This document shows, piece after piece, positions 41,969 through 62,501 of a stretch of DNA of 64,000 nucleotides. The notes beneath the pieces are model-generated. The model worked only from the letters and a program-made list of their open reading frames with translations, made no database searches and was not told the DNA's origin. Made by a program: the position numbers and the translations under genes. Every line of letters starts with the position of its first letter. Within the stretch, counting starts at the first letter, position 1. The stretch comes from an uncultured Clostridia bacterium (GTDB lineage Bacteria; Bacillota; Clostridia; TANB77; CAG-508). The stretch covers positions 7,025 to 71,024 of the forward strand of contig CANQTX010000006.1 of assembly GCA_947626885.1 (NCBI GenBank). Reading direction: 5' to 3'.

Positions 41969-42051
41969 TGGTGCGGATGAGAGGACTTGAACCCCCACGG
42001 TTTCCCACTAGATCCTAAGTCTAGCGCGTCTGCCAGTTTCGCCACATCCGC
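41969..42051 (-). tRNA. tRNA-Leu (anticodon UAG), CCA encoded
   Basis: Reverse complement: GCGGATGTGGCGAAACTGGCAGACGCGCTAGACTTAGGATCTAGTGGGAAACCGTGGGGGTTCAAGTCCTCTCATCCGCACCA. Acceptor GCGGATG/CATCCGC, anticodon loop CTTAGGA, long variable arm. Confidence 0.9.
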
Positions 42052-43483: not shown

Positions 43484-46183
43484 TTATTCATCTTTTGTTG
43501 TATTCCATTTTAAAAACTTCATAATTTCAACTATAATTAATGGTGCTATTATCAATATGATTGTTTCTCCCAATTTTTCTAATGGTAGCGAAACAATTCC
43601 AAATAATTGTTGTAATGCTGGCACCAATAAAACTATTAACATTAATGCTGCTGAGACCACAATTGCTAAGATTAATTTTCCATTATTAAATGGATTTGAT
43701 TTAAAAATTGATTCTTTGTTATTTCTAATGTTAAATACATGAACCAATTCTGATAATGCTAATACTGTAAATGCCATTGTTTCTCCTATTGCTATTTTCT
43801 CAGGAATTGTTACACCCTTTGTTGCTAATCCTAACATGAATGCAATTAACGTTAATAAGCCTACCATAATACCTTGATAAATAATTCTAAATGTCATTCC
43901 CTTTGTAAAAATTCCTTTTTTATTTTTTAAAGGTTTTCTTTTCATAATTCCATTCTCAGCAGGATCTACTGCTAAAGCTAATGCTGGAAGAGAGTCTGTT
44001 ACTAAATTAATCCACAAAATTTGTACGGGTAATAAAATATCTAAATCATTGATATATTCTGAAGTAATCCCAAATTGGTTTGAGAAAAAAGGTGTTAATA
44101 ATATTGCTAAAAACAGTACTACAATTTCTCCTACATTACTTGATAACAGAAAAGCAATGGCTTTTAAGATATTATCATAAATTCTTCTTCCCTCTTCAAC
44201 AGCTGAGACTACTGTTGCAAAATTATCATCTGTTAAAATAACATCTGCTGCTTCTTTTGCCACATCAGTTCCTACTACTCCCATAGCACATCCAATATCT
44301 GCTTTTTTTAGTGCTGGTGCATCGTTAACGCCATCCCCAGTCATAGCTACAATCTCTCCATTAGCTTGCCAAGCTCTTACAATACGTACTTTATGTTCTG
44401 GTGATACTCTTGCATAAACAGATATATTTTTTACTTTTTCTATCAGCTCATCATCTGTTATTTTTTCCAACTCTGCTCCCGTTATAGCTTCACTTTCATT
44501 TTTTAAAATACCCAATTCTTTAGCAATAGCAGTTGCTGTAATTTTGTGATCTCCTGTAATCATAACTGTTTTAATACCTGCTGATATACATTTCTTAACA
44601 GCCTCTTTAGCCTCTTCTCTTGGTGGATCTATCATACCAACCATACCTACAAAAATTAGTTCTGACTCTAATTTTTGTATATCTTCTTCTGATAGTGTGT
44701 GATTAATAATTTTATAACCTGCTGCCAAAACTCTTAAAGCGCCTTCTGCCATTTTCTGATTGCATTCTTGAATCCTTTGTTTATAATTTCCTAAGTCAGA
44801 CTGTATTTCTCCATTTTTTTGATATGATGTGCAGCATTTTAATAATTCATCTACACCACCTTTTGTATAAACTACAAATGTATCTCCCACTTTATGCACA
44901 GTCGTCATTAATTTTCTATCAGAATCAAAAGGAATTTCTGCTATTCTAGGATAATTTTCTAATTGAAATCCAATTTTATTTCCCATATCAATTAAAGCTG
45001 TTTCTGTTGGATCTCCTGTTAATGTACCATCATCTGCAATTTTTGTATCATTACAAAGCATATTGGCTTCTAATAACAATTTTACTTCTTCATCTATATC
45101 TTTTACTTTGTCTAAATCTGTTAAAATACCATTGGTAAATATCTTTTGCACTGTCATTTTATTTTGCGTTAATGTACCTGTTTTATCAGAACAAATGACT
45201 GACGCACTTCCTAAGGTTTCTACAGCTGGAAGTCTTTTTACAATAGCATTTCTTCTAACCATTCTCTGAACACCAATAGCAAGAACAATAGTAGATACAG
45301 CAGCTAATCCTTCTGGAATAGCTGCTACAGCTAAAGATACTGCTGTCATAAACATATTAAGTGGTGCTTTTCCATAAAGCATTCCTACTACAAATATAAT
45401 AAAACAAATCATTAAAGCAACAATACCTAATGTTTTTCCTAAATTATTTAATTTCATTTGCAATGGAGTTTGTGTTTCTTCTGTTTCATTTATCATCTCT
45501 GCTATTTTTCCAACTTCCGTTTTCATAGCTGTTTCAACTACAATTCCTTTTCCCCTACCATAAGTAATTAAACTTGAGGAAAATAATAAATTTTTTCTAT
45601 CTCCTATTCCTATATTTTCATCTTCAATGGTATTAGATGATTTTTCTACTGGAACAGACTCTCCTGTTAATGCTGACTCCTGTGCTTTTAAATTCACAGC
45701 CTCTGTAATTCTAATATCTGCTGGTACAAAATCTCCTGTATCTAATACAACTATATCGCCTGGTACTAAATCTGCTGACTGTACCACTGATAAATTTCCA
45801 TCTCTTATAACTTTAGCAACATGACTACTTAATTTTTGTAATGCTTCTAATGATTTTTCAGCTTTATTTTCTTGTGCTACTCCAATGATAGCATTTACAA
45901 TAATAACAACAAGTATAATAAAAGTATCTGCTATTCCCTCTCCTTGCTGAATTCCAACAATTCCAGAAACAATTGCTGCAATAATCAATACAATAATCAT
46001 AAAATCTTTAAATTGTTCTAAAAATTTTTGTAATAAGCTTTTTTTCGCTTTACCTTTTAATTCATTTTTCCCATATTTTTCATAACGCTTTATTACTTCT
46101 TGTGATGATAATCCATTTTGTAAATCTGTTTCTAGTTTTTTAACTGTTTCTTTCACTGATATATGAAACCATTTTTCTTCCAT
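43484..46183 (-). CDS. P-type cation-transporting ATPase (type IIA, Ca2+/Mn2+-ATPase-like)
   Basis: CSDKTGTLT phosphorylation site, IPEGL in TM4, TGDGVNDAPALKKADIG, TGES. Start at 46183 behind AGGAGG; the track ORF is 20 codons longer. Confidence 0.9.
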   Translation of the reverse strand: MEEKWFHISVKETVKKLETDLQNGLSSQEVIKRYEKYGKNELKGKAKKSLLQKFLEQFKDFMIIVLIIAAIVSGIVGIQQGEGIADTFIILVVIIVNAIIGVAQENKAEKSLEALQKLSSHVAKVIRDGNLSVVQSADLVPGDIVVLDTGDFVPADIRITEAVNLKAQESALTGESVPVEKSSNTIEDENIGIGDRKNLLFSSSLITYGRGKGIVVETAMKTEVGKIAEMINETEETQTPLQMKLNNLGKTLGIVALMICFIIFVVGMLYGKAPLNMFMTAVSLAVAAIPEGLAAVSTIVLAIGVQRMVRRNAIVKRLPAVETLGSASVICSDKTGTLTQNKMTVQKIFTNGILTDLDKVKDIDEEVKLLLEANMLCNDTKIADDGTLTGDPTETALIDMGNKIGFQLENYPRIAEIPFDSDRKLMTTVHKVGDTFVVYTKGGVDELLKCCTSYQKNGEIQSDLGNYKQRIQECNQKMAEGALRVLAAGYKIINHTLSEEDIQKLESELIFVGMVGMIDPPREEAKEAVKKCISAGIKTVMITGDHKITATAIAKELGILKNESEAITGAELEKITDDELIEKVKNISVYARVSPEHKVRIVRAWQANGEIVAMTGDGVNDAPALKKADIGCAMGVVGTDVAKEAADVILTDDNFATVVSAVEEGRRIYDNILKAIAFLLSSNVGEIVVLFLAILLTPFFSNQFGITSEYINDLDILLPVQILWINLVTDSLPALALAVDPAENGIMKRKPLKNKKGIFTKGMTFRIIYQGIMVGLLTLIAFMLGLATKGVTIPEKIAIGETMAFTVLALSELVHVFNIRNNKESIFKSNPFNNGKLILAIVVSAALMLIVLLVPALQQLFGIVSLPLEKLGETIILIIAPLIIVEIMKFLKWNTTKDE

Positions 46184-46278
46184 TTTCTCCTCCTGATTTT
46201 TCTTTTTTATTATTTCCTTATTTTTATAAAATTCTTCTTTCAATTTTCATTTTTTAAATTTTTTACTATCTCAGAAAT

Positions 46279-47169
46279 TTAATCATCATATTGCTTTAAA
46301 AAATTTAAGATTTCTTTTGCCAAAATATTTTCTTTATCTGTATAATTATGATTTGCCCCATCAATAAAACAAATATCTTTATCTTTCTTGTTTATTTTGG
46401 TATTTAGCATTTGAGTTAATATTTCAACACGCTGTTCTACCATTTCATTTACATTTCCCCATCTCATAAATAATGGAACAGATATATTATTTAGTGCATT
46501 AAAAGTAAAATTGCTATTACTATATTGTGCAAAATCAAATGTTTTATAATATTTTGCATATTTTAAAAATGTTTTTACAGAAATAGGATATATAAAGCTT
46601 TCATTAGGCATAATATCATATTCCCTACCTGTTTTTTCTTTTTCTTCTGCTAATTGTAAAAAAGTAGGGAAATTTTTACCCAGATGAACACGTAATACTC
46701 TTGGAATATCTACCAATGATAATAATAGCATTCCTTTAATATAGGATAGTATTTCCGAATTTTCTTTTTGCAACTTATGATATGTATATAGTGTTTTTGT
46801 ACTGCCTAAACTATGCCCTTGTAAATAGATTTCTGTATACCCCATTTCAATTGACTTCATTATAGCACCTTTTATATCATAATATCCTTCTTCAACATCT
46901 TCATAAGTTGTACCTGCTAATATTTTTGTTATTTCTCCATTTTGCTCTTTTTTTAAAGTTCTTACAAGCTCACTTCCTCTATTATTATAAATAAAAAAAT
47001 CTATATGACCTTCTGCTATTTTTTGTGCAATTATTTTATCTCTTTCTCTAAAGCAATTACCATTCATCCCATGTGTTGCGATTACTACTCTTTTAGTATG
47101 ATTTTTATGAAGAAAACCATCTAACATAACACCATCTGCTGCTTTAAATTTTATGATTTCTACTTGCAT
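46279..47169 (-). CDS. alpha/beta-fold hydrolase
   Basis: 296 aa with nucleophile elbow GHSLG. Lies 35 nt upstream of the ATPase gene, so they are probably co-transcribed. Confidence 0.6.
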   Translation of the reverse strand: MQVEIIKFKAADGVMLDGFLHKNHTKRVVIATHGMNGNCFRERDKIIAQKIAEGHIDFFIYNNRGSELVRTLKKEQNGEITKILAGTTYEDVEEGYYDIKGAIMKSIEMGYTEIYLQGHSLGSTKTLYTYHKLQKENSEILSYIKGMLLLSLVDIPRVLRVHLGKNFPTFLQLAEEKEKTGREYDIMPNESFIYPISVKTFLKYAKYYKTFDFAQYSNSNFTFNALNNISVPLFMRWGNVNEMVEQRVEILTQMLNTKINKKDKDICFIDGANHNYTDKENILAKEILNFLKQYDD

Positions 47170-47194
47170 ATTAAATTCCTTTCCCTCGATAAGA

Positions 47195-47325
47195 AAAAAG
47201 ACTTTTAAAGAAACAACATTACTGTTATTGTTTCTTTAAAAGTCTCACTCCTTTACAGGTTACTAACCAGATAAAATATCGAGATTGTTGATTAGTAATT
47301 TTCAAGCTACTCCCTTTTAAATACA
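47195..47325 (-). promoter_or_regulatory. structured 5' leader with an intrinsic terminator (candidate riboswitch/attenuator, or a small RNA)
   Basis: Minus-strand RNA UUUAAAAGGGAGUAGCUUGAAAAUUACUAAUCAACAAUCUCGAUAUUUUAUCUGGUUAGUAACCUGUAAAGGAGUGA. It is followed by a 17-bp perfect hairpin GACUUUUAAAGAAACAA / UUGUUUCUUUAAAAGUC (47244-47200) and UUUUUU, then the RBS and ATG of the hydrolase gene at 47169. Confidence 0.55.
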
Positions 47326-47330
47326 TTTGC

Positions 47331-47359
47331 ATTATACTAAAAAGAAATAACTTTTTCAA
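47331..47359 (-). promoter_or_regulatory. sigma-A promoter driving the leader
   Basis: Minus strand TTGAAA (47359-47354), a 17-nt spacer, then TATAAT (47336-47331). Confidence 0.6.
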
Positions 47360-47392
47360 GTATTTTTTGATTTCTTTTTTGAAAAGAAAAAT

Positions 47393-47432
47393 AAAAAAAT
47401 TAATTCTCAATTTTTTAAGAATTAATTTTTTT
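47393..47432 (-). terminator. rho-independent terminator of the DUF5684-like gene
   Basis: 15-bp perfect arms AAAAAAATTAATTCT / AGAATTAATTTTTTT, 11 nt after the stop codon. Confidence 0.65.
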
Positions 47433-47443
47433 ATTTTAGCCTT

Positions 47444-47860
47444 TTATTGTCCACCTGGACCTAGATATTCAGCTTTTCCTAAACCTAGGTATATATGAGT
47501 AATACCTGGGAAGAAGATTAAAGCTAATGTACAACCTATTCCTTTACCAAATGATTTGGCAAGTTTGTATGGTTGATGGATTATTGGATAAAGATTCACT
47601 ATCGGTATAAAACATAATAAAATTAACCAAGGTGATTCACCACTCATTTTGAAAAGTAAGACTGCATTATAAATAGGGATAATTGATTTCCATCCAGCTA
47701 TACCAGCCTTAGTAAACATTTTCCACATGCCAATTATTTCAAGTATATAAATGATTGCTAGAATAGTATATAGAACAGTTAAAACTCCACCTGTAATTTG
47801 TCCAACCGTGTAAATCTCGCTATTTGATAACCCAGAAAAATCTAAATTACTACCATCCAC
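47444..47860 (-). CDS. small multi-TM protein resembling DUF5684
   Basis: WKMFTKAGIAGWKSIIPIYNAVLLFKMSGESPW matches my memory of the DUF5684 core. GTG start with AGGAG 9 nt upstream. Confidence 0.55.
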   Translation of the reverse strand: MDGSNLDFSGLSNSEIYTVGQITGGVLTVLYTILAIIYILEIIGMWKMFTKAGIAGWKSIIPIYNAVLLFKMSGESPWLILLCFIPIVNLYPIIHQPYKLAKSFGKGIGCTLALIFFPGITHIYLGLGKAEYLGPGGQ

Positions 47861-50704: not shown

Positions 50705-51057
50705 TGGTGGAGGTGGTGGGAGTTGAACCCACGTCCAATAACCCTTCCCAATAAATTTCTCCGAGTGCAGTTTGTTAATAAATTTCCTTCCAATCTCCTT
50801 AACAAACAAAGTTTATTGAAAGTAGCCTTCATAGAATCCCATTAGTATAGAAAGCATATACTAACTTCGTTTCCTACTAATCATCGCCTTATCTTAAGCC
50901 GTAGGTTGCAAAAGTAAGACGTCACTGCAATTAGGCAGCGAAAGCTAATTCTTCGTTATTAGCGTTTATTTTTAGTTTATGCCTTTTAAAGTGGCCAGGC
51001 ATCTCCACTACTCGCTATTTATCTTTCTAGATTACTGTCGAAGCCAAATACACCCCC
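50705..51057 (-). ncRNA. ssrA: tmRNA (SsrA)
   Basis: Reverse complement starts GGGGGTGTATTTGGCTTCGACAG and ends GGACGTGGGTTCAACTCCCACCACCTCCACCA. The tag ORF GCT AAT AAC GAA GAA TTA GCT TTC GCT GCC TAA (50963-50931) encodes ANNEELAFAA. Confidence 0.9.
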
Positions 51058-62426: not shown

Positions 62427-62501
62427 AGGGGTATAGTGTTAATGGTAGCACATCGGTCTCCAAAACCGCCTGTGAGGGTTCGAGTCCTTCTACCCCTGCC
62501 A
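62427..62501 (+). tRNA. tRNA-Trp (anticodon CCA), CCA encoded
   Basis: AGGGGTATAGTGTTAATGGTAGCACATCGGTCTCCAAAACCGCCTGTGAGGGTTCGAGTCCTTCTACCCCTGCCA. Acceptor AGGGGTA/TACCCCT, anticodon loop CTCCAAA, T-loop GGTTCGAGTCC. Confidence 0.9.

Follow-up and report, generated by a model that had tools for sequence, protein, structure and literature searches.

The leader that precedes the hydrolase and P-type ATPase genes on the minus strand of the analysed window (64,000 nucleotides of DNA from an uncultured Clostridia bacterium) is very probably a yybP-ykoY (Mn2+) riboswitch of the transcriptional ON type, folded as a compact three-way junction that lacks helix P2. A first-pass annotation, made from the sequence alone, had named a minimal Mn2+ variant of this kind as one of several options. 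This option is now supported by invariant family signatures in the internal loops L1 and L3, and by a model built from Clostridial elements alone (R1) that finds the aptamers of E. coli alx and mntP. The window contains exactly one copy of the element, which R1 detects as a single match with 88.4 bits and an E-value of 1.7e-19. The features of this copy and of the genes that follow it are collected in Table 1.

Table 1. Features of the leader and the downstream genes in the window, in 5' to 3' order of the transcript.
Feature	Position	Strand	Evidence
-35 box TTGAAA	47354..47359	-	promoter match
-10 box TATAAT	47331..47336	-	promoter match
Whole aptamer, 89 nt, P2-less three-way-junction yybP-ykoY-type RNA	47234..47322	-	R1 cmsearch and covariation
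P1.1 5' strand UUUAAAAG, switch helix	47314..47321	-	pairing and covariation
L1 5' strand GGAGUA	47308..47313	-	invariant columns; alignment with RF00080, alx and mntP
P1.2 5' strand GCU	47305..47307	-	pair changes among relatives
A-rich linker UGAAAA, at the place of helix P2	47299..47304	-	linker survey, R1 and RF00080 alignments
P3.1 5' strand UUACUAAUCA	47289..47298	-	covariation
L3 loop ACAAUCUC, ACA invariant	47281..47288	-	RF00080 consensus UCAACAU aligns here
P3.2 hairpin GAUA-UUU-UAUC	47270..47280	-	covariation
P3.1 3' strand UGGUUAGUAA, UGG invariant	47260..47269	-	alignments
P4 hairpin CCU-GUAA-AGG	47250..47259	-	end-anchored stem test
P1.2 3' strand AGU	47247..47249	-	alignment and pairing
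L1 3' strand GAGA, AGA invariant	47243..47246	-	alignment
P1.1 3' strand CUUUUAAA, also within terminator 5' arm	47235..47242	-	pairing
Intrinsic terminator stem-loop, 20-21 bp stem, 7-nt loop	47199..47245	-	folding
Terminator U-tract UUUUUC	47193..47198	-	sequence
Putative ribosome-binding region GAGGGAAAGGAA, 6 nt 5' of the ATG at 47169	47176..47187	-	sequence
First gene, 296-aa alpha/beta-hydrolase-like protein	46279..47169	-	weak profile matches
Second gene, PII-type (PMR1/SPCA/LMCA1-like) cation P-type ATPase	43484..46183	-	profile and structure relatives

The promoter noted in the first-pass annotation, TTGAAA-17-TATAAT (47359-47331, minus strand), is present and agrees with the consensus at 11 of 12 positions with a spacer of 17 nt. 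Promoter-like sites lie ahead of the element in 90 of 158 unique relatives, and the distance from the -10 box to GGGAG has its mode at 15-16 nt among these relatives and measures 16 nt in the window. Transcription would start at about 47324-47322, at the 5' edge of P1.1. At the other end of the leader, the hairpin and U-tract that had been described as a perfect 17-bp terminator are indeed there, but the stem is longer than stated, with 20-21 bp between 47245 and 47199. The folding energy of this terminator is -24.1 kcal/mol, with z = -7.5, and is not matched by any of 200 shuffled sequences. As had also been noticed, UUUAAAAG (47321-47314) can pair without a mismatch with CUUUUAAA (47242-47235) inside the 5' arm of the terminator; we could confirm this complementarity, and the pairing, which the first-pass annotation had called an antiterminator, is P1.1, the switch helix of the family. 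The terminator is mutually exclusive with P1.1 and with the 3' strand of L1. This overlap is a general property of the element: 64 of 65 relatives use the 3' strand of the aptamer, together with AGAC, as the base of the terminator, and the upper part of the terminator stem varies freely. The proposed transcription-attenuation layout is supported by the relatives as well as by the window, where the closed-aptamer state has an energy of -13.9 kcal/mol as compared to -33 to -37 kcal/mol for the terminator states.

Related loci were gathered with the ATPase protein as the query; a genome search with the hydrolase protein returned no relatives. The ATPase-ascertained loci contain 65 copies of the element, with 64 related loci that carry it upstream of the orthologous ATPase gene, and 80 further loci with the element were found by the RNA pattern alone. 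In total, this collection holds 159 unique aptamers. Among uncultured gut Clostridia, at least 120 species-level genomes have the RNA ahead of the orthologous ATPase gene. The DNA of the window itself comes from a rabbit-gut metagenome, and a search for RNA-seq or Term-seq runs returned DNA metagenome runs only.

In a MAFFT alignment, 89.6% of the cells are paired and 12 pairs have changed on both sides, a degree of pairing that was reached by none of 500 shuffles and that compares with 28-58% for slid controls. A second, independently gathered set gave 90.5% paired cells and 16 pairs changed on both sides (0/500 shuffles; slid controls 26-58%). The leader is thus conserved and covaries in two separately gathered sets of relatives. 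The individual helices contribute as follows: pairing reaches 93-95% in P1.1 (helix 1), where both partners have changed in 2-3 pairs, P3.1 (helix 3) is 95-96% paired with 4-5 such pairs, and P3.2 (helix 4), which differs in length among relatives, is 78-86% paired with 3/4 pairs changed on both sides. In P1.2, the pair G16:C occurs as G-C in 45, as A-U in 10 and as G-U in 7 sequences, and all 10 A-U cases come from loci outside model building. Ten relatives outside the 52-sequence alignment carry GUAAC, compensated in P1.2. The subclade of the window combines GAGAC with a G-U pair in P1.2, whereas most relatives combine AAGAC with G-C, a difference that was counted as a point against the riboswitch reading.

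Of all the helices, P4 has the least support from the alignments (62-70% paired), and with 3 bp the window copy of it is marginal. This short hairpin varies among relatives, some of which carry up to 66 nt of inserted sequence. Minimum free energy (MFE) folding of isolated P4 segments returned no stem in 109 of 159 cases. In place of MFE folding, P4 was scored against shuffles by an end-anchored stem test, by which 84% of the 159 aptamers, but only 35% of shuffles, contain stems of at least 3 bp. For the aptamer as a whole, single-sequence folding performed no better than for shuffles (z = -0.2 to -0.6) and did not recover the comparative fold; the comparative structure lies within 0.9 kcal/mol of the MFE. 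Single-sequence MFE folding is uninformative for this aptamer, an A/U-rich RNA.

The nucleotides that do not vary are located in the strands of the L1/L3 metal site rather than in the helices. In the 52-sequence alignment GGGAGUAGC, UCAACA, UGG and AGAC are invariant, and RAGAC is found in 159 of 159 parsed aptamers. The 5' strand of L1, together with G47314 and G47307, makes up the invariant GGGAGUAG motif; it aligns to GGGGAGUAGC of RF00080 and to L1 of alx and mntP, and it lies directly 3' of P1.1, as does the conserved L1 strand of the family (GGGGAGUAG). On the opposite side, the invariant AGA that has been described for the yybP-ykoY family (PMC6649816) sits directly 5' of the 3' strand of P1.1. 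The resemblance in L3 likewise holds at the level of sequence, with UCAACA and the opposing UGG corresponding to UCAACAU...UGG in RF00080. The invariant UCA ends in A47289, which by this alignment is a candidate for the Mn2+-contacting adenosine and the probable counterpart of A41 in L. lactis (within UCA) and A48 in X. oryzae (within ACA) (PMC6754395).

These assignments also correct the first-pass annotation, which had taken GGUUAGUAACC (47269-47259), followed by CCUGUAAA, as the second, 3' conserved strand of the family. We reject this placement, since the stretch comprises the 3' strand of P3.1 and the beginning of P4. The 3' strand that is conserved in the family lies instead at 47249-47242 and reads AGU-GAGA-C. 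The same annotation had considered the stretch of ~40 nt between its two strands too short for four helices. It is true that there is no four-way junction, but the shortfall is explained by the absence of helix P2, for which alx provides a precedent (PMC12153347). Instead of P2 the relatives contain a linker of 3-6 nt (AUAAA, UAAA, AAAAA and similar). In the R1 alignment P2 of mntP appears as a 14-nt insertion exactly at this position, and the 19-nt P2 segment of RF00080 shrinks to 3 nt when aligned to one relative, L037.

Searches with the established family model speak against the assignment, but a control weakens this objection. At gathering thresholds, Rfam reports only tmRNA and two tRNAs in the whole window, and RF00080, for which this threshold is 45 bits, does not match the window copy even at E<=10. 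The recommended Rfam scan hence leaves the window copy unreported; it does, however, give RF00080 as the match with the lowest E-value for L037, below threshold at 9.8-11.3 bits, with L1 and P3.1/L3 aligned and the P2 segment collapsed. As a control, RF00080 assigned 41.6 bits to E. coli mntP, also under the threshold, and missed alx at E<=0.01, from which we conclude that this copy of the model under-calls accepted members. Permissive Rfam matches within 47100-47450 (miRNA precursors, bglG-cis-reg, PyrR, plastid 3'UTRs) were rejected as chance matches to a hairpin because all of them fall on the terminator stem. Homology could be established in the reverse direction. Searched over 11 kb of E. 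coli DNA, R1 ranks the alx aptamer first (18.3 bits, E 0.008) and the mntP aptamer second (17.8 bits, E 0.011), each correctly placed upstream of its own gene, and it aligns alx co-linearly, with no P2 insertion.

Canonical four-way members (L. lactis yoaB, X. oryzae, E. coli mntP, B. subtilis) have in common with the Clostridial element the L1 motif, the UCA/ACA adenosine of L3, the AGA strand, a P1.1 that competes with the expression platform and, presumably, the control of Mn2+ efflux genes. The Clostridial element differs from them by its lack of P2, and hence by a length of 82-100 nt and a three-way junction, and by a score far under the RF00080 gathering threshold. Mn2+ riboswitches upstream of P-type ATPases are known from C. 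difficile CD2503 and L. lactis YoaB (PMC11477304). The failure to form a four-way junction was not taken as exclusion from the family because the accepted members alx and S. pneumoniae mgtA are three-way junctions too.

E. coli alx is an accepted family member without P2, and its subclass is reported to be exclusive to Enterobacterales (PMC12153347). It has the same order of parts, with P1.1-L1-P1.2, a short linker for P2, P3.1-L3-P3.2, P4 and the RAGAC strand, and its GGGGAGUAAC...UAAGUGAGACC resembles GUAGC/GUAAC...AGUGAGAC of the window's subclade. In contrast, L3 of alx is divergent (GUCAUUA) where the Clostridial element has the family consensus UCAACA; the P4 segment of alx is long, with 41 nt from P3.1 to the 3' strand and a reported termination site, whereas P4 is tiny here; the alx platform is translational and pH-responsive, whereas here a classical terminator follows the aptamer; and alx controls a TerC-family exporter in Enterobacterales rather than a P-type ATPase in gut Clostridia. 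Membership in the alx subclass was therefore rejected on the basis of L3 sequence, platform, gene and taxon, and the two are only topologically alike. The second comparison, S. pneumoniae mgtA, is a three-way-junction Mn2+ riboswitch with a terminator platform that controls a PII-type Mn2+/Ca2+ ATPase (PMC6649816). Both RNAs consist of a three-way aptamer followed by an intrinsic terminator, act or would act as ON switches for a PII-type ATPase in a Firmicute, and replace the lost helix by a short A-rich turn (an invariant UNAAA in Streptococcus). However, Streptococcus mgtA lost P4, between P3 and the 3' strand, whereas the Clostridial element kept P4 and lost P2, for which a linker UAUAAA/UGAAAA stands between P1.2 and P3.1. 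With a P4 hairpin present and the A-rich replacement at the P2 position, a Streptococcus-type P4-less architecture was rejected.

These similarities suggest how the leader may work. The RNA would begin right at the 5' strand of P1.1, and the aptamer (47322-47234) is built of two legs. The first leg comprises P1.1, the L1 internal loop (GGGAGUAG facing GAGA) and P1.2, the second P3.1, the L3 loop (UCA-ACAAUCUC) and P3.2, with the short P4 hairpin at the junction and the A-rich linker, here taken as 4-6 nt, where canonical members have P2. By analogy with solved structures of the family, L1 may dock on L3 and hold a divalent ion, most likely Mn2+, by way of backbone phosphates and N7 of the L3 adenosine A47289. 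Ligand binding would stabilize P1.1, a weak, A/U-rich helix of 8 bp, and a stable P1.1 would withhold CUUUUAAA and the adjacent AGAC from the terminator base, so that RNA polymerase could read through into the hydrolase and P-type ATPase genes. The PMR1/SPCA-like ATPase would then pump out the surplus cation. When no ligand is bound, the terminator, which is much the more stable structure, would form and transcription would stop at the U-tract near 47193.

The genes 3' of the element agree with this assignment. Among 79 assessable pattern-found loci, the ATPase gene follows in 78, either directly or past the hydrolase gene, and in the remaining locus the hydrolase follows before the contig ends. 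The prediction that the element controls a P-type ATPase is accordingly backed by an association with the ATPase, the hydrolase or both in 79 of 79 loci. The hydrolase, with weak matches to LCAT, Hydrolase_4 and DUF1749 only, lies between riboswitch and ATPase solely in the subclade of the window (~14 relatives) and is absent from most relatives. The P-type ATPase is the constant regulated gene of the element. Alignments to relatives begin at the first residue of the 899-aa form. Among proteins of solved structure, LMCA1, a Ca2+-ATPase of Listeria, is the closest, and the best NCBIfam models are Ca2+-ATPase equivalogs. The element occupies a position typical of this family, upstream of a putative Mn2+ efflux or homeostasis gene, insofar as the pump probably transports Mn2+.

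Given this relationship of the pump, the physiological cation could differ. The same fold and terminator mechanism could respond to Ca2+ or another divalent ion (Fe2+, Co2+, Cd2+) instead of Mn2+, which we consider unlikely. An effector of this kind would suit a pump that is primarily a Ca2+-ATPase. The proximity of the ATPase to LMCA1, a Ca2+ pump, and the top rank of Ca2+-ATPase equivalog models are in line with sensing of Ca2+, but PMR1/SPCA-type pumps also carry Mn2+, which weakens this argument. In vitro, the mgtA aptamer of S. pneumoniae has a higher affinity for Ca2+ than for Mn2+; yet Mn2+, and not Ca2+, drives read-through and in vivo induction in this organism (PMC6649816). Binding of further transition metals has been reported for the family (PMC11477304). 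On the other hand, the L3 adenosine that gives Mn2+ a soft N7 contact lies in the invariant UCAACA (PMC6754395), which argues against Ca2+.

A more far-reaching version of this idea is that the element represents a subclass of Mn2+ riboswitches that evolved independently, is minimal by nature (82-100 nt) and is fixed across a whole order-level lineage of gut Clostridia. In this subclass the A-rich turn in place of P2 would organise the junction, mirroring UNAAA at P4 in Streptococcus, and metal selectivity may have shifted towards Ca2+ in keeping with an LMCA1-like pump. We regard this as a long shot; if the Ca2+-shifted reading were true, this would be the first riboswitch with Ca2+ as its physiological signal.

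It is very improbable that the leader is a ligand-independent or protein- or sRNA-dependent attenuator, or a stand-alone small RNA of ~130 nt, that resembles an Mn2+ aptamer superficially. In favour of this reading, termination would yield a small RNA as a separate product, no Rfam family reaches threshold for the leader, and there are weak, sub-threshold matches to bglG-cis-reg and PyrR leaders. These matches, however, align to the terminator hairpin alone, and further points against are the invariant nucleotides exactly in the metal-site strands, the reciprocal recovery of alx and mntP by R1, and the strict linkage of the element to a cation pump. Finally, we reject the 61-aa open frame at 47225-47410, already suspected to be spurious, as a small protein behind the conservation, since Pfam gives no match, its TTG start sits within the terminator hairpin of the upstream gene, 5' of the promoter, and relatives of the region (aptamers of 82-145 nt) show indels of arbitrary length, compensatory pairs rather than a codon-position pattern, and no conserved frame.

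On this evidence the leader counts as a real and conserved representative, in stripped-down form, of a well-studied riboswitch family, a useful rather than surprising addition that does not overturn current understanding. In at least 120 species-level genomes of uncultured gut Clostridia, a metal riboswitch escapes the current Rfam model, and a real gap in annotation could be filled by including three-way-junction members in the seed of RF00080. Against the implication of the alx literature, the P2-less architecture is not confined to Enterobacterales, and here the loss of P2 goes together with a metal-binding core that follows the consensus and with a simple terminator as platform. With its ~85 nt and tiny P3.2 and P4 hairpins, the aptamer recommends itself as a minimal scaffold, both in structural studies and in the design of Mn2+ biosensors. 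A short A-rich linker can take the place of either peripheral helix, P2 here or P4 in Streptococcus, which suggests that the conserved core of the family is L1/L3 docking rather than the type of junction.

Read on the minus strand, the leader runs from TTGAAA-17-TATAAT through GCAAAUG into UAUUUAAAAGGGAGUAGCUUGAAAAUUACUAAUCAACAAUCUCGAUAUUUUAUCUGGUUAGUAACCUGUAAAGGAGUGAGACUUUUAAAGAAACAAUAACAGUAAUGUUGUUUCUUUAAAAGUCUUUUUUCUUAUCGAGGGAAAGGAAUUUAAUAUG. A consensus scan recovered the near-consensus promoter described in the first-pass annotation (11/12 matches) and the terminator placed before the operon, although the stem of the latter is 20 bp long rather than 17 bp; a T-run follows. Folded in isolation, this hairpin reaches -24.1 kcal/mol (z = -7.5). 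The pairing proposed between the 5' segment and the 5' arm of the terminator also held, since UUUAAAAG is the exact complement of CUUUUAAA within that arm. In relatives, promoter-like sites lie at a modal distance of 15-16 nt upstream of GGGAG, and the transcript is therefore predicted to begin at the P1.1 5' strand. Such a start is typical of kinetically controlled riboswitches.

Directly past the stop codon of the upstream DUF5684 gene we found a very A/U-rich hairpin of about 23 bp followed by a U-run (-21.6 kcal/mol, z = -6.8). This is probably an intrinsic terminator, which the consensus scan missed because it contains fewer than three G-C pairs. Since this strong terminator closes the DUF5684 gene, the leader is a separate transcription unit. 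The ORF overlapping the leader starts inside the same hairpin, upstream of the leader promoter, and has no Pfam match; on these two grounds we rule it out as a real gene, as had been suspected.

The riboswitch-proximal gene encodes a 296-aa alpha/beta-hydrolase-like protein with weak Pfam matches (LCAT, Hydrolase_4, DUF1749) and no NCBIfam match. Used as a genome-search query, the protein returned no relatives; tblastn located copies, 52-59% identical, in about 14 related loci. For the ATPase, the best NCBIfam model is TIGR01522 (PMR1-type Ca2+-ATPase, 753 bits), and the nearest relatives of known structure are Listeria LMCA1 and human SPCA1. The mechanical ORF start is a TTG (919 aa); in relatives, the ATPase alignment begins at residue 1 of the 899-aa form, the ATG of which is more likely the true start. 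The two genes are probably co-transcribed, because the 95-nt gap between the hydrolase stop and the ATPase contains no terminator-like site. The window, from a rabbit-gut metagenome, has a G+C content of 25-31% in 4-kb windows, and Rfam at gathering thresholds reported nothing in it besides a tmRNA and two tRNA genes.

Features of the window and of related loci
Feature	Position	Strand	Remark
Promoter	47359-47331	-	
Aptamer	47322-47234	-	about 89 nt
UUUAAAAG	47321-47314	-	
CUUUUAAA	47242-47235	-	
P2-replacing linker	47299-47304		
Leader terminator	47245-47199	-	
DUF5684 gene	47444-47860		
DUF5684 terminator hairpin	~47438-47385	-	
Overlapping ORF	47225-47410		spurious
Hydrolase gene	46279-47169	-	
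ATPase gene	43484-46183		ATG at 46183; TTG at 46243
tmRNA gene	50705-51057	-	184 bits
tRNA gene	62427-62498	+	
tRNA gene	41972-42051	-	
UMPH-1-type 5'-nucleotidase, L002	2191-2982		PF05822
UMPH-1-type 5'-nucleotidase, L026	2185-2985		PF05822
UMPH-1-type 5'-nucleotidase, L050	2192-2986		PF05822
Aptamer with large P4 insertion, L049	925-1069		
Aptamer with large P4 insertion, L005	2765-2884		
Aptamer with large P4 insertion, L068	2622-2723		
Aptamer with large P4 insertion, L119			
Aptamer with large P4 insertion, L129			

The leader is conserved in relatives. A search with the ATPase gave 80 loci from uncultured gut Clostridia (66-86% identity), most of which carry the same leader according to a simple motif search. 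A MAFFT alignment of 52 leader copies (A1) contains the invariant blocks GGGAGUAGC, UCAACA, UGG and AGACUUUU, with variable hairpins between them. The covariance model built from A1 (R1) detected 65 copies, including 10 loci outside the training set, and exactly one in the window (88.4 bits). A DNA pattern scan that took no account of genes and covered one genome for each GTDB species gave at least 120 stretches; among the matches listed, all belong to Clostridium sp. CAG-type or uncultured Clostridia genomes, and R1 confirmed all 80 listed loci.

We propose that the element consists of helices P1.1, P1.2, P3.1, P3.2 and P4, without P2. Two-sided pair changes occur in both alignments examined for covariation: 12 pairs in A1 (89.6% of cells paired; shuffles reaching this level, 0/500; slid controls, 28-58%) and 16 pairs in the pattern-ascertained alignment A3 of 81 sequences (90.5%; 0/500; 26-58%). 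P1.2 offers the clearest single case, a G:C pair that is G-C in 45, A-U in 10 and G-U in 7 sequences; the A-U cases (GUAAC...AAGU) all come from loci outside R1 training, and the G-U of the window is the intermediate. P3.1 contains 4-5 covarying pairs, and P3.2 varies in sequence and length with pairing kept. Of the helices, P4 is the most weakly paired in the alignments (62-70%), a consequence of its variable length (7-66 nt). When stems were scored independently of register, 84% of 159 unique aptamers had an end-anchored stem of 3 bp or more, versus 35% of shuffles. In a few aptamers, large insertions extend this segment to as much as 66 nt while the rest of the aptamer is fixed, so P4 tolerates expansion. 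For the window, the comparative structure (-13.9 kcal/mol) is 0.9 kcal/mol dearer than the MFE (-14.8 kcal/mol); single-sequence folding of the aptamer is uninformative by itself.

Rfam at gathering thresholds gave no match at the leader site, and RF00080, the yybP-ykoY model, was not found in the window even at E<=10. On the relative L037, which contains GGGGAGUAGC, RF00080 was nevertheless the lowest E-value match (9.8-11.3 bits vs a gathering score of 45). Its L1 (GGGGAGUAGC) and P3.1/L3 block (...UCAACAU [P3.2] UGG...) map exactly onto the L037 element, and its 19-nt P2 segment shrinks to 3 nt. In controls on the alx and mntP regions of E. coli MG1655, RF00080 scored the textbook mntP aptamer at 41.6 bits, under its own gathering score, and missed alx at E<=0.01. 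The lack of an Rfam match thus argues only weakly against membership. In Rfam 15 the model spans 177 positions, of which the mntP alignment deletes roughly positions 96-170; its 3' half seems dominated by a long variable segment, a possible flaw in the model.

In the reciprocal search, the Clostridial-only R1, run with filters off on 11 kb of E. coli DNA, ranked the alx aptamer first (18.3 bits, E 0.008) and the mntP aptamer second (17.8 bits, E 0.011), each directly upstream of its own gene. The P2 hairpin of mntP aligns as a 14-nt insertion exactly at the A-rich linker, and alx is co-linear without insertion (GGGGAGUAACUU-CAUU-P3.1...UAAGUGAGACCUU). In the known family, docking of L1 against L3 creates the Mn2+ site, to which five phosphates and the N7 of an invariant L3 adenosine contribute contacts (UCA41 in L. 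lactis, ACA48 in X. oryzae; PMC6754395); an AGA in the L1 3' strand is likewise invariant (PMC6649816). Because the RF00080 alignment, the reciprocal matches and these literature-defined features agree, we assign the element on sequence grounds to the yybP-ykoY family as a P2-less aptamer, which bears out the earlier suggestion of a minimal or divergent Mn2+-class variant. E. coli alx has the same topology, but the family-consensus L3 belongs to the element and not to alx. In the S. pneumoniae mgtA aptamer, also a three-way junction, UNAAA stands in place of P4 (PMC6649816), whereas the A-rich linker of the Clostridial element replaces P2. This linker is usually UAUAAA, UGAAAA or UAAAAA. Its resemblance to the invariant UNAAA of Streptococcus (PMC6649816) may reflect a recurring junction-turn solution.

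In 64 of the 65 relatives, the aptamer 3' strand (RAGAC + CUUUUAAA) is the base of the intrinsic terminator 5' arm. The upper stem differs freely between species, so the aptamer/terminator overlap itself is the conserved feature. In the window, terminator-containing states (-33 to -37 kcal/mol) are far more stable than the closed aptamer (-13.9 kcal/mol); hence the predicted default is termination near 47193. Mn2+-dependent L1/L3 docking would stabilise the weak 8-bp A/U-rich P1.1 and withhold the terminator base, such that polymerase would read into the operon. By analogy with the L. lactis, X. oryzae and S. pneumoniae members, for which ON-switch logic was shown experimentally (PMC6754395, PMC6649816), we infer that the element is the family's standard ON switch with Mn2+ as ligand. 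The main alternative is that the element physiologically senses Ca2+ or another divalent cation; a hint of this is the affinity for Ca2+ that the S. pneumoniae aptamer shows in vitro (PMC6649816). Mn2+ riboswitches ahead of P-type ATPases are already documented for yoaB of L. lactis, mgtA of S. pneumoniae and CD2503 of C. difficile (PMC6649816, PMC11477304).

The ATPase is the constant target. Among the matches listed, 79 pattern-found loci have enough downstream sequence: the ATPase follows directly in 75, the hydrolase and then the ATPase in 3, and the hydrolase and then the contig end in 1. Among the loci compared, the hydrolase separates riboswitch and ATPase only in the window's subclade. 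A UMPH-1-type HAD pyrimidine 5'-nucleotidase (PF05822, E 1e-41 to 1e-60) lies between them in several relatives; in L002 it comes after the hydrolase.

The riboswitch class, its mechanism, the pairing with P-type ATPases and even the P2-less topology are already known. What is new is a lineage-wide Clostridial form, in at least 120 species and unreported by Rfam, which extends the P2-less architecture beyond Enterobacterales in combination with a metal core that fits the consensus and a simple terminator platform. It also complements the Streptococcus case, in that the A-rich linker replaces P2 instead of P4.
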